Counted from the first letter of the stretch, positions 3,777-64,000 are shown. The stretch: 64,000 bases of DNA from a virus (IMGVR_UViG_3300028591_000128:32001-96000), one strand, 5' to 3'. Program-made: numbers and translations. The notes: a model not told the origin generated them from the letters alone.

Positions 3777-4442
3777 CTATTCATATTTATCCCAATCTAT
3801 GTGTCCATATGCAACCTTTCTAATTATTTGACCACCTTTACGCAACGGTCTAAGATAATGGAATTCATCTGTATCAACTTCCATGTTAGGAAATACGTTG
3901 TGTTTTATAAGTTCTTCTGGAAGGATGATAGCATGATTTCCAAGTGCTTTATTAAAATAAGTTTCTAATTTACCACTAATTTCAGCCCATCCGATTCTAT
4001 TCATAAATTTTATGTGCTGAATCAATGCAGAATTAGCTTTTGTTCTAACGGTAATATTTTCTTCTCTAGAAGATGTATCAGATGCAACTTTTCGTCTAGC
4101 TATACCTACAAGTTTCATACCATGATTTTTACGATAAACTGATACAACATATACTCGATCTATGTCAAGATCGGAATCAGAACTAGGTTGTGGACCATCA
4201 TAAGTAATATACCATAGATAAGAATCATTGATAAATCTATCCATATCCTTAAATGATCTAAACCCACCAAGTTCATCATAGGCTTCATCAATAAATGCAA
4301 ATAACTCATCACTAAATTTGCGTTTACTCTCTACATCAGAAATAAATCGTTTAGACGCAAGAATAACATCTACATCATGTAATTCAAATGTTGTGAATCT
4401 GTCAGTTTCTATAGCACTATGTATGTATAATTTCATAATCAT
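3777..4442 (-). CDS. Hypothetical phage protein (221 aa)
   Basis: Long ORF coupled to the upstream HTH gene by a 4-nt overlap. Confidence 0.7.
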   Translation of the reverse strand: MIMKLYIHSAIETDRFTTFELHDVDVILASKRFISDVESKRKFSDELFAFIDEAYDELGGFRSFKDMDRFINDSYLWYITYDGPQPSSDSDLDIDRVYVVSVYRKNHGMKLVGIARRKVASDTSSREENITVRTKANSALIQHIKFMNRIGWAEISGKLETYFNKALGNHAIILPEELIKHNVFPNMEVDTDEFHYLRPLRKGGQIIRKVAYGHIDWDKYE

Positions 4443-4627
4443 ATCTCCAAATCAAAATCTATCTTCACTAATCTATTCAGCAGATATAGATAACTATCCG
4501 GTGTTCTCTGTCTACCTTGTTCCCAATTCTGTAATTGTTGTACTCCAAGATAGTATTTTGCTGCGAACTTTGTCTGTGATAATCCAGTAAGTTTTCGTAG
4601 TTCCTTCACAGGAATAAGATTCTCCAT
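4439..4627 (-). CDS. XRE/Cro-like helix-turn-helix regulator
   Basis: KELRKLTGLSQTKFAAKY...LQNWEQGRQ.P is a classic HTH_3 pattern. Confidence 0.85.
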   Translation of the reverse strand: MENLIPVKELRKLTGLSQTKFAAKYYLGVQQLQNWEQGRQRTPDSYLYLLNRLVKIDFDLEI

Positions 4628-4687
4628 TATCCCACCACCTTTCTAATTATATGTTATACTATAATTTCGTATTTGTCAAGCATAAAA

Positions 4688-4718
4688 ATAAGACCCTTAG
4701 AGTATTCCAAGGGTCTTA
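4688..4718 (-). terminator. Intrinsic terminator
   Basis: taagaccctt...aagggtctta inverted repeat followed by a T-run on the minus strand. Confidence 0.65.
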
Positions 4719-4726
4719 CTGATATT

Positions 4727-6094
4727 TTATTCAAATCTTGCAAGTGTATATGCAAGTTCTGTTTCAAATGAATCCTTAGCTGCCAATAAGCATTGCTGAA
4801 TTGTGCCATCAAAGTTGCAATAATACAAATCAATAGTACATATGATGGTTGCAATATCTTCCCTAAGTACATCAAGTACAGATTCTACATTATCTCTATC
4901 AACAGCATCTGCAAGTTTCATTGGATGTGGTGCATATCCGAATAACTTATAATGTTCGACAGATAGTTGATCAATAAGACCATTAGACATCCACATATAA
5001 GAATCTGCAATCGTCTTTATACTTGTGTAATTAGGACCAGTTACATTCCAAGATGCCCACAGGCAATCTAATGACAAGTTGTATAATGTACGGAGAATGT
5101 CATCTATACATGTATCCATACTGACTTCAAAGTAATCACAGGGAACTATGTCATAGTTATCCCCATCCATTTCTACAGAATATGATGCAGGTTCATTCTC
5201 TGGAAGAGAATCTACAAAATCCGGATTTTCTACTATATTGGATACTAACTCAGTGGTATCTGTAACATTACAAGGTGAATCTATAGCAACCAACTGAATA
5301 TCCATCATATCATTTGCTACTACTTTTTGTAATGTAACTTTTATATTAGTAGACAACTGTATAGGTTGTGTATCTTCCACAGTTTCATCAACACCTAATT
5401 TCTCAAACAGCTTCACCATCTCATCATCTATGGTATCATTAACAGTTTTTTTAACTAACTTCGCAAACTCTTCATTTGTTAATTCAGAAACATCTATATC
5501 TTCACTCAAACTTAACTTTACAGCCTTATCAACAACTGCCTTTGAGTTATCATCTTCTTTTCTTCTCAATGCACAATCAATGATTGCGTAATCATCAGAA
5601 CATCCTACAAGTTTTATACCAAATATATATGGGTAGTTACCTTTTTTCTTTTGATCTTCAGTATAATCTCCGGCTGTTAATACTTCCATATAATCCCAAC
5701 CGCTATCAAACTTAACTTCTTTGCCATCTTTTCCATTAGTACGTATCTTCTCAACAGTATCCTCTGTAAGAACCTTGTCAAAAGTCTTATTGAGGGATTT
5801 AAGAAATGTATCAAACAACTTAGCACCTGTATTTAAAATAGTAGAAACTAATCCAGCTTCTACAGATTCTTTACCATCAGTAGATTCTGAATCATAAATA
5901 TAGTCTTCAGGATAATTCTCCCGCATGTAGTTGGATTCGTATTCATCATCCTGCCATGCAAAATTAATCCGTTCTTTCAAATTCTGATAAGTTTCATGAT
6001 CAAATTCATCCCAAGTGGATTCATCAGGATGTTGTTTCAACCAATCTTCTAATTCTTTTTCCAATTTATATGGATCTTCATACTGTCTATACAT
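4727..6094 (-). CDS. Acidic modular protein: N-terminal MYRQYEDP module and C-terminal degenerate Dps/ferritin-like domain
   Basis: The N-terminus is shared with 56577..57152, which suggests a start at 6094. C-terminal LY...WASWNVTGPNY..I....D.Y......ID resembles Dps HWNVxGxxF without the histidines. Confidence 0.6.
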   Translation of the reverse strand: MYRQYEDPYKLEKELEDWLKQHPDESTWDEFDHETYQNLKERINFAWQDDEYESNYMRENYPEDYIYDSESTDGKESVEAGLVSTILNTGAKLFDTFLKSLNKTFDKVLTEDTVEKIRTNGKDGKEVKFDSGWDYMEVLTAGDYTEDQKKKGNYPYIFGIKLVGCSDDYAIIDCALRRKEDDNSKAVVDKAVKLSLSEDIDVSELTNEEFAKLVKKTVNDTIDDEMVKLFEKLGVDETVEDTQPIQLSTNIKVTLQKVVANDMMDIQLVAIDSPCNVTDTTELVSNIVENPDFVDSLPENEPASYSVEMDGDNYDIVPCDYFEVSMDTCIDDILRTLYNLSLDCLWASWNVTGPNYTSIKTIADSYMWMSNGLIDQLSVEHYKLFGYAPHPMKLADAVDRDNVESVLDVLREDIATIICTIDLYYCNFDGTIQQCLLAAKDSFETELAYTLARFE

Positions 6095-55078: not shown

Positions 55079-55681
55079 TTACAACTCAGGATATCGGTCT
55101 TTAAATCGTTTCATTGCCTTGATATATCCAGAAGTACCAGAATATGGTTCATACTCCGTAGCATTTACAGAAATATCAGTAGAACTCAATACGAAGTCTT
55201 TTCCGCAGATGTTTGTAAAATACTCTTCTGCATCTTTTACATTTGCATGATCAAACTCCATATCAATGTTTCCATTCCGATCGTAATATCTTCCTATAAC
55301 ATTGATTGCATAATTCCTTGTCTTATCCTGTGTAGGAATAGTTACAAGTACAGAATCCTGATCATATTTCTTACACCAACTCACTGCAAGTTTGATGAAA
55401 TCTTCTGTCCGGTATCCATTATTTACTACACAAAATGTATCTTCTGTTACACGAACACCATCCGGATTTTCACCACGTTCAATGAATCCACCAAATGCCT
55501 TAATGTATGTAAGATCACTTCCATGAATATCTGAAGCAAGTTCTTTGTTTCTTCTACGATTTTCCTTTACAGAATATTCGTGCCGAAATGCAGTGATAAA
55601 CATGCAATCGTAGTTATTCATGTAGTCTACTACACGGCTGAAAGAAAAAGCGTTAATTGTTTGATTTACGAGTCTCAGCAT
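55079..55681 (-). CDS. Hypothetical protein (ITA...N..RN..L...YDQDSVL pattern)
   Basis: 200-aa ORF with RBS. Confidence 0.65.
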   Translation of the reverse strand: MLRLVNQTINAFSFSRVVDYMNNYDCMFITAFRHEYSVKENRRRNKELASDIHGSDLTYIKAFGGFIERGENPDGVRVTEDTFCVVNNGYRTEDFIKLAVSWCKKYDQDSVLVTIPTQDKTRNYAINVIGRYYDRNGNIDMEFDHANVKDAEEYFTNICGKDFVLSSTDISVNATEYEPYSGTSGYIKAMKRFKDRYPEL

Positions 55682-62720: not shown

Positions 62721-64000
62721 CTAATCGGGAAGTTCCAATTCTAACACAAACGAATCTTTCTGTACCGTTGTAAGTGCATTTGCTATTCCATCAAAACTCG
62801 GTTCTAATCGTTGTTCAAGATAAATTCCAGGAGTACGGTCTGATGGATTTTCTGGATTTCTACCACGCATAGCACATGAAAAATATAATTTATTCATCTT
62901 CATCACCAAAATAGATCACAAGAAAATCCATTCTACCTGAACGAAAGGCCGGTGCATAATTATTATAGAATCTTGCGTTTCTAACTGTTGCATATGTATC
63001 ATCAACTATCCACATCTGAATCATCATCCTGTACCTCTATAATCTTCCAGCCATTCCTTAATGCAGAATGACCTATAGTCGTTGTTATACTACCAAGTAT
63101 ATCTGATTGGGATGGGATATAAGAATCATAATCATTATAGGCTATGAATTGTTTCATAATCATCCACCACTATCATTGGAACTCTGCCACCACCTTGAGA
63201 AGTTGTTAGTGATGGACAAAAATATTCCGGATCCCATATATTTCCAGCATATCCAGTTCCAAAATCTTCATTATATATATTAGCAAGTTTCCTTACATTG
63301 AATTCCAATATCTTTCCACCATTCATATACTGCAACATTTGCAAATCCATATCCATGTCCTGCACCACCACAAACAATAGCTGGAAATATTCCATCCGTG
63401 TGGACAACAATGCCACCTTCGGAATTACCTGTACTATAATTACCTATTGTCAGTATTTTATTCGTATCTTGATTTATCACAAATAAGTACCGCCGTTACA
63501 GTTCCATGGTTTTCTTTCACACACGGAGCAACCCACCCCCACAGAAACAATTCTGGAAGCATCATGGTTGCTGAACATATAATTTCCTAAAATGATAATT
63601 TCATTCATCTTCATCTCTTACCAAAATGTATAATTTCTGTCCAGTCATTATTGTAGTCATTAGAGATGGGCATATTCCTTCTGAATCATATGTTGATCCA
63701 TCATATCCGGCTTTACACTTCCCGGATACTCCACCCAAAAACATGATCTTAAAGTTATCCATCACTCACCACAACCCTTATCGGAGTTTTGAAATCTCTT
63801 GCCATCAATGTAGGTGCCAATCCACCAGCCGAATATATATAGCACCACTGGTGCATCTTTTCGCTACCATTCTCCGGAAGAAGTAATCCAACTGTTATTA
63901 TTTCATTTTGTTCGGATAGAATCATTATCAATCACCAAAATCGTAGTATCTTTTAATATAGTAGAAATTGTATTACAGATTCCATCTGTTCTTACAGACC
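62721..64000 (-). other. Array of at least 9 coupled mini-ORFs resembling C5-methyltransferase variable-region modules
   Basis: Hand-translated ORFs: >64000-63903, 63925-63755, 63762-63601, 63608-63477 (frameshifted, other frame to 63458), 63480-63280, 63326-63135, 63157-63002, 63027-62890, 62903-62721. Each has a GxxPTL/NTL/PSL-type core. Confidence 0.65.

Follow-up and report, generated by a model that had tools for sequence, protein, structure and literature searches.

The DNA analysed here, referred to as the window, is a stretch of 64,000 nucleotides that comprises bases 32001-96000 of a 106,310-bp IMG/VR virus record, and the record is that of a large rumen-type phage. An ORF listing and a three-frame print revealed, between 64000 and 62721 on the minus strand, a gap-free chain of overlapping mini-ORFs, nine in number, arranged head-to-tail and encoding 45-73 aa, which we named C1-C9 and refer to as array C. 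An earlier note on this DNA had described at least nine head-to-tail ORFs of 45-66 aa at this place; the chain and the quoted cores were recovered, but C1 starts beyond the window at 64106 and the fourth core is made up of two pieces, C4a and C4b. Features past the window end are given in the coordinates of L004, a 12-kb stretch reaching past that end (L004 coordinate = window coordinate - 62000). The modules of array C are as follows:

63903..64000, minus strand: C1, 3' part; full mini-ORF of 67 aa, core motif RTDGICNTISTILKD
63755..63925, minus strand: C2, 56 aa, core APTLMARDFK, ATG at 63925, SD -7.9 kcal/mol
63601..63762, minus strand: C3, 53 aa, core GICPSLMTT, ATG at 63762, SD -10.6 kcal/mol
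63458..63608, minus strand: C4, here in two pieces, C4a (63477-63608) and C4b (63458-63586)
63280..63480, minus strand: C5, 66 aa, core GIFPAIVCG, GTG start at 63480, no ATG, SD -6.4 kcal/mol
63135..63356, minus strand: C6, 73 aa, core FCPSLTTSQGGGRVPMI, ATG at 63356, SD -8.6 kcal/mol
63002..63157, minus strand: C7, 51 aa, core GSITTTIGHSALRNGWKIIEV, ATG at 63157, SD -7.7 kcal/mol
62890..63027, minus strand: C8, 45 aa, core YAPAFRSG, ATG at 63027, SD -7.2 kcal/mol
62721..62897, minus strand: C9, 58 aa, core AMRGRNPENPSDR...ALTTVQKD, ATG at 62897, SD -8.4 kcal/mol; last in the array

The start of C1 (extrapolated 64106, L004 2106) is an ATG without SD, 9 nt past the stop of a preceding 221-aa ORF. 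C2 overlaps C1 by 23 nt and is read in the +1 frame, C6 begins inside C5 with an overlap of 77 nt with the C5 tail, and C7 starts 23 nt upstream of the C6 stop. The terminus of C3 is ...RDEDE followed by TGA, that of C8 ...GDEDE followed by TAA. Array C is the third of three arrays with a total of 23 modules (A 8, B 6, C 9), each of which ends in its own stop codon. The gene order on the minus strand is a 301-aa ORF, array A, a C-terminal methyltransferase ORF, array B, a 67-aa Arc-like ORF, the 221-aa ORF, which has no assigned function, and array C. Array A is thus positioned between motif VIII and motif IX, as TRDs are in a normal gene, and 15 of the 23 modules (arrays B and C, downstream of the IX-X ORF) lie outside this interval. 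Over the whole locus the frame step to the next ORF is +1 in 24 of 26 cases, and all 23 modules are different, pairwise identities being below 61% (highest 60%).

Several further features lie around the arrays. A perfect 16-nt palindrome at L004 3040-3085 (extrapolated window 65040-65085) covers a promoter-like site, TTGACA, 17 nt, TATTCT with TG; located ahead of the 67-aa Arc/ribbon-helix-helix-like ORF before array C, it may be the operator of a separate transcription unit. Directly upstream of the 301-aa ORF a 383-aa ORF (L004 7046-8197, minus strand) contains a DUF559 (Vsr/endonuclease-like) domain and is kept in the relative L005. Within the window, a 200-aa ORF at 55079-55681 (minus strand) was assigned to the S-adenosylmethionine lyases (PF23780, E 6e-11); genes of this family are of the anti-restriction type, and SAM is also required by the methyltransferase of the phage itself. 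The relatives compared below are L005 (98% identical core), L006 (a complete 253-kb phage) and L040-L042 (ENA and Logan contigs); a TnpB/IS605-type ORF and an N4/N6 methyltransferase are inserted between arrays B and C in relatives (L006 10710-12687; L040 261-1388 and 6445-7020). In L040 the IX-X ORF is followed by an HNH endonuclease gene, and an AcrVA2-like gene is present in the L040 neighbourhood.

The earlier note had stated that the window holds no catalytic motifs and that its last ORF is not followed by motifs IX-X, and had suggested looking for a dcm core beyond 64000. Both statements are true, and the core lies just outside, divided into an N ORF with motifs I-VIII and a C ORF with motifs IX-X. 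The N-terminal core ORF (301 aa, L004 6047-6952, minus strand, ~4 kb past the window end) matches PF00145 with E 1.1e-41 over profile positions 22-209, carries motifs I, IV, VI and VIII (FSGIG, FPCTD, ENV and QNRKR), and has M.MpeI and M.HhaI as nearest solved structures. Judged by its motifs it corresponds to the first two thirds of a C5-cytosine methyltransferase (motifs I-VIII), and its end directly follows the motif VIII region, at the point expected for the start of the variable region. The C-terminal core ORF (minus strand, L004 about 4030-4743) starts with 45 acidic residues ahead of the probable motifs IX and X (RKLTPEEC and QAGNG); it is preceded by a strong SD (-12.4 kcal/mol) and begins at an ATG of its own, both kept in four genomes. 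At 14 bits its Pfam score does not reach the cut-off. In this genome motif X is interrupted by an insert; motif X (QAGNG) is intact in L005 (128 aa) and L006 (127 aa). A PF00145 search of the 106-kb record yielded no other catalytic core, and none near array C. Here and in four related assemblies the N part, each module and the C part occupy ORFs of their own, so that the enzyme is not encoded as a single polypeptide and the TRDs are not inserted covalently between motifs VIII and IX of one chain. Instead, the division into subunits falls at the variable region, as in split enzymes of the M.AquI type.

The insert that interrupts motif X of the C core ORF measures 324 nt (L004 4159-4482, minus strand; genome 98159-98482). 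In group I introns the exon ends in T and the intron ends in G, and these terminal bases are found here as well, T in the preceding exon and G in the insert; a P1 pairing AGGU/GCCU is possible. In L040 a copy with 97% identity occupies the corresponding position, and L005 and L006 are free of the insert. An Rfam search of the 12-kb locus gave no match of the insert to group I introns or any other family. From its ends, the insert is probably a small group I intron, in which case an intact motif X would require splicing. The core of two relatives carries inteins at the catalytic Pro-Cys motif (motif IV; L006 6612-8555, L040 2079-3374), the intein-bearing core ORFs having 647 aa (L006) and 431 aa (L040) as compared to 301 aa here.

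The earlier note had likened the peptides to variable-region (TRD) modules of methyltransferases, and this likeness was borne out by homology for all nine. When all modules were compared with 288 long proteins by phmmer, every module of the window was matched, with scores from 17 bits (C8) to 85 bits; eight of nine checked targets belong to PF00145, and the matches fall between the catalytic part and motifs IX-X. By phmmer and tblastn, C1-C9 and the majority of the modules in arrays A and B match PF00145 proteins within their variable regions, and the modules are thus homologous to the variable regions of C5-methyltransferases, as tandem TRDs are. C1 matches the PF00145 protein P0032 with 83 bits, C2 residues 117-138 of P0052 (PF00145) with module A3 as paralogue, C3 residues 89-114 of P0046 (PF00145 C-terminal part), and C5 residues 407-453 of P0147 (PF00145, E 5e-69; phmmer). 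C4 resembles a module within the continuous ORF of L011. C6 aligns with residues 112-157 of P0046 (55 bits) and has B4, B5 and C3 as paralogues, whereas C8, with 17 bits to P0042 (phmmer), is the weakest TRD assignment. C7 is 60% identical to A7 and also matches P0132; its N-terminal FIAY, encoded upstream of the preceding stop, aligns with the continuous methyltransferases L011 and L012. In the Atlas, 27 of 30 feature matches of C5 are to cytosine methyltransferase clusters, and the search with C7 gave no match. Pfam likewise gave no match for single mini-ORFs because these are too short and too variable.

The last module, C9, has homologues in 25 other IMG/VR contigs, mostly inside one continuous ORF in which motif I is followed by several similar modules and then by motifs IX-X (546 aa in L012, 677 aa in L017); such continuous multi-module C5-methyltransferases with a C9 homologue occur in more than 20 IMG/VR phages, and in GenBank phages the module lies inside annotated cytosine methyltransferase genes. 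A C9 profile matched 2761 cluster representatives, and among the best 150 matches in 1.84 billion representatives 11 have ≤100 aa. Stand-alone homologues of C9 number 22 and have 48-106 aa. The module order A7-A8-IX/X is the same as in the continuous enzymes L011 and L012. C9 alone was predicted by AlphaFold2 (36-sequence alignment) to form three strands (pLDDT 83.6), and neither a Foldseek search with this model against the PDB nor a PDB profile search returned a matching solved TRD.

A start codon preceded by an SD duplex of at most -5 kcal/mol is found in 18 of the 23 modules (median -7.3 kcal/mol), a threshold reached by only 19% of 788 control windows taken from alternative frames of long ORFs (binomial P 1.5e-9). 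For comparison, the median SD duplex energy in this phage is -9.1 kcal/mol at gene starts and -2.9 kcal/mol at internal ATGs. The SD is weak or absent in C1, A1, A6, B3 and B5. The usual SD, GGTGAT or GGTGGT, lies within Leu-Val-Val/Ile codons 4-6 nt before the ATG, which corresponds to initiation spacing, and the ATG of the next module is located in the +1 frame of Asp-Glu codons in the acidic GAT-GAA tail. This arrangement explains the acidic tails, in keeping with the earlier statement that most ORFs end in a short acidic tail encoded by the next RBS: starts and SDs are embedded where the ORF before them ends in purine-rich codons for acidic residues. The same coding logic may, we think, underlie the predominance of +1 steps (24 of 26), since GAT-GAA contains an ATG that is read in the +1 frame; the A3-A4 junction is a conserved -1 step. 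The starts of the mini-ORFs are kept in L005, L006 and L040 although adjoining residues vary. A7 and C7 have residues in common with continuous enzymes, and the codons for these lie 23-26 nt ahead of the stop of the previous ORF. From the placement of these signals we conclude that the mini-ORFs would be initiated separately. An alternative genetic code was rejected, as long ORFs use all three stops and a read-through of the stops remains in the wrong frame.

Related phages keep the layout of one module per ORF in at least four assemblies that are independent of each other, and a C9 orthologue is present in at least seven contigs. The earlier note had held the orderly layout to argue against random decay and would have counted one continuous ORF in relatives, with breaks at random positions here, against its idea. 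Its argument gained strength from the comparison: in L005, L006 and L040-L042 the breaks fall at the same module boundaries, selection is purifying and the starts are conserved, continuity being confined to distant homologues. Fragmentation also extends to relatives that are further removed (L031, L033), and in the unrelated phages L036/L037 and L038 stand-alone modules are joined by classical ATGA (-1) overlaps, those of L036 being located downstream of the IX-X ORF. One further contig has a three-piece order of 256, 106 and 119 aa. Stand-alone modules in other phages always adjoin PF00145 ORFs. A truly degraded copy, L039, has a broken catalytic domain as well. Assembly or sequencing error was rejected as a cause of the layout because at least four independent assemblies share the frames and window genes of up to 2318 aa are intact.

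Module content differs between the close relatives. L006 has one extra module and is devoid of C1 and C7, and L040 is devoid of C6-C8, its C5 junction being joined straight to C9; the L040 gene call for C5 starts from an ATG (MTIGNY) in a remodelled junction, and the GTG is retained as well. Some breaks inside modules are private to single genomes: A6 and C4 are frameshifted here, B1 in L005 and C2-C4 in L006. A6 (L004 about 5190-5220, minus strand) is broken by a 14-nt tandem duplication found here only and is intact in L005, L006 and L040. The break in C4 is an indel in a G-run near 63540; the module is intact as one ORF in relatives (51 aa in L005, 57 aa in L040), and the length of the G-run differs in L006. 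Module breaks in a single genome show either relaxed selection on single modules or assembly errors.

Comparison of the modules in their own frames gave a pN/pS of 0.22 against L005 and of about 0.14 for clear orthologues in L006, compared to 0.11 for the catalytic core. Third codon positions account for 62-70% of the substitutions, the differences at positions 1/2/3 being 35/19/87 for L005, 34/15/115 for L006 and 87/30/206 for L040. Among single modules, C3 differs from its L006 counterpart by 17 synonymous and 5 non-synonymous changes, and C8, which is 98% identical in L005 and L006, by 6 synonymous changes and 1 non-synonymous change from that in L006. By these substitution patterns selection on the modules is purifying, and the third-position excess together with the low pN/pS suggests that the small frames are translated and that their products matter.

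The earlier note had named three mechanisms for such a layout, namely a split enzyme whose modules act in trans, a cassette reservoir and a product stitched by frameshifting; of these the split enzyme fits best, whereas the reservoir found no support and frameshifting at the junctions is disfavoured. If each junction stop were passed by a +1 shift, the arrays would be read as fused polypeptides, yielding a giant multispecific methyltransferase. The prevalence of the +1 step (24 of 26) would agree with this, as would the fixed place of the stop relative to the conserved N-E-I residues of the next module (AATGAA) and the enrichment of TGA at junctions (12 of 25, as compared to 8 of 43 long ORFs). 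However, the P-site codons at the junctions (GAA, GGA, GCA, AAA) are unable to re-pair in the +1 frame, so that the junctions do not resemble programmed +1 sites of the prfB or Ty1 type, and the SD spacing suits initiation rather than stimulation of a shift. A shift would also skip the conserved N-terminal residues of A7, C7 and C6, which are encoded upstream of the stop, and could not serve the conserved -1 step at A3-A4 or the ATGA (-1) overlaps of other lineages. Eight to 13 shifts in series would leave almost no full-length product, and arrays B and C, which follow the IX-X ORF or two unrelated genes, would give chains consisting of TRDs only. No suppressor tRNA or tRNA with a four-base anticodon was found here or among the 38 tRNAs of the complete relative: ARAGORN detected no tRNA genes in the 106-kb record, and the 38 tRNA genes of the complete relative have ordinary anticodons. 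On these grounds stitching by frameshifts is improbable. The one place whose sequence resembles a programmed +1 site is module A8 (L004 4745-4973, minus strand; extrapolated window 66745-66973), in which every relative has a break at a tract rich in C or G. The break sites CCC_CGG_A (here and in L005) and CCC_AGG_A (in L040) are good +1 slip sites, in L031 the break lies in a G-run, and in L006 a -1 shift would be needed instead. The slip codon pairs occur in frame 0 times in 22,483 codons of long ORFs, and the downstream piece, which has no start codon, differs from L040 by synonymous changes (5 of 5). The A8 tract may thus be a genuine programmed +1 shift site or a phase-variable tract. In the complete relative G001 (253 kb; L052-L055), three of the 38 tRNA genes (Gly, Pro, Trp) are tRNA-like and have anticodon-loop inserts of 27-46 nt.

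Alternatively, the modules could be slowly decaying leftovers of a once continuous multispecific methyltransferase, translated or not but without a function of their own; the continuous distant homologues, the frameshifts private to each genome (A6 and C4 here, B1 in L005, C2-C4 in L006), the break of A8 in all relatives and the differing module contents of close relatives would fit this. Decay is nevertheless unlikely, given that the pN/pS of the modules (0.14-0.22) is similar to that of the catalytic core, that the third-position excess is strong, that in-frame nonsense codons were not seen inside modules, and that the breaks fall at module boundaries equipped with SD and start. Moreover, the core ORFs are intact in all relatives, with intein and intron-like insert at conserved motifs as in functional genes, and L039, in which the catalytic domain is broken too, looks different. 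Gain and loss of modules between relatives exactly at junctions, as in the C5 junction of L040 leading to C9, and short imperfect junction repeats of 16-27 nt would suit arrays that are silent cassette stores, from which recombination into an expression site switches specificity as in shufflons or phase-variable hsdS. Yet silent cassettes have no need of their own SD, start and stop, and an expression site is lacking, since the modules located between the two core ORFs, N and C, are likewise encoded one by one. Meaningful inverted repeats, long perfect repeats or an adjacent recombinase were not found and all modules are co-oriented; a shufflon or inversion model was rejected given these co-oriented modules and direct repeats that are short and imperfect. 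We therefore consider a cassette store very unlikely. Least probable of all is that the mini-proteins have a core-independent role, in binding or blocking host methyltransferases or restriction enzymes or as DNA-binding decoys: the detachment of arrays B and C from the core and the anti-defence neighbours (the S-AdoMet lyase in the window, the AcrVA2-like gene in L040) would fit, but array A lies in the usual TRD place between motifs VIII and IX, the order A7-A8-IX/X is that of the continuous L011 and L012, and stand-alone modules elsewhere are always beside PF00145 ORFs. Frameshift stitching, a silent cassette store and decay are all less likely than subunits acting in trans.

We thus lean, with slightly more confidence than doubt, towards separately translated specificity subunits that would act in trans on a split core, an idea that draws on analogy with known enzymes. 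According to this proposal a phage C5-cytosine DNA methyltransferase would have been dismantled into subunits, the window containing the last of three arrays of TRD mini-genes. Each mini-ORF has its own SD, a start inside the end of the preceding ORF and its own stop, and for this reason the arrays would be expressed as a chain of coupled small proteins, as the design of the sequence and its conservation suggest. A module would next bind in trans at a place between the two core subunits, N and C, and confer a single DNA specificity; with each module doing so, one catalytic core could methylate many sites and shield the phage genome from many restriction systems. Docking in trans and multi-site protection are proposed by analogy with the multispecific enzymes of Bacillus phages and with natural and engineered split C5-methyltransferases, and by the same analogy it is probable that the layout enables a single enzyme to guard the DNA of the phage against many restriction systems of its hosts. 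More tentatively, and with doubt slightly prevailing, we suggest a self-assembling methyltransferase of three components in which the split core would accept any of the 23 free peptides of 45-73 aa as TRD. We know of no experimental precedent for a three-part assembly with a free peptide of ~50 aa.

The enzymes of Bacillus phages (SPR, phi3T, rho11s, H2, SPbeta) carry tandem TRDs of ~40-60 aa between motifs VIII and IX of one core (PMC12707154, PMC8936443), and the presence of several TRDs in a single polypeptide allows evasion of many restriction systems (PMC12707154). Tandem TRDs are a feature shared with the present locus, but the Bacillus phage enzymes consist of one polypeptide with about 3-5 TRDs, whereas here 23 modules have their own start and stop and 15 of them lie outside the VIII-IX interval. 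Two-polypeptide enzymes are represented by M.AquI and M.EcoHK31I, and fragments of M.HhaI, M.BspRI, M.BsuRI and M.SssI complement each other in vivo (PMC3404938). As in the locus described here, M.AquI and M.EcoHK31I (alpha/beta) are separate polypeptides with a break in or beside the variable region; they have two subunits and one specificity, in contrast to the two-part core and the library of free TRD-sized peptides found here. The small subunit of M.EcoHK31I is encoded in an overlapping frame. Type I HsdS follows a similar logic in that a separate, exchangeable protein sets the specificity of a common methylase, but it is of an unrelated fold and family, serves N6-adenine methylases and switches by inversions, signs of which were not found here. 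Among the two-piece C5-methyltransferases of Firmicute prophages is that of the Streptococcus phage Javan179 (MK448694.1), deposited as a complete prophage genome (host S. equi 4047); the same C9-type module occurs there in a gene annotated as two CDS, whose break follows an acidic end and coincides with a TRD boundary. This is, however, a single break without an array of mini-ORFs. In the literature searched we found no description of arrays of TRD mini-genes. The locus is, as far as can be judged, a derived, extreme form of the multispecific and split C5-methyltransferases.

Phage multispecific methyltransferases are the textbook case of restriction evasion by one enzyme, and to our knowledge all known examples have their modules in a single chain. 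If the proposal is true, free and exchangeable recognition mini-proteins would be a new way of building DNA specificity in the C5 family, with a logic closer to that of Type I HsdS subunits, and some 20 distinct 5mC motifs would be set by one scaffold. The acquisition or loss of a single mini-gene would be enough to add or remove a specificity, which would explain a gene-by-gene turnover of anti-restriction specificities in large phages, the module sets of close relatives being different. The arrays would, finally, constitute a natural parts kit for programmable cytosine methylation.
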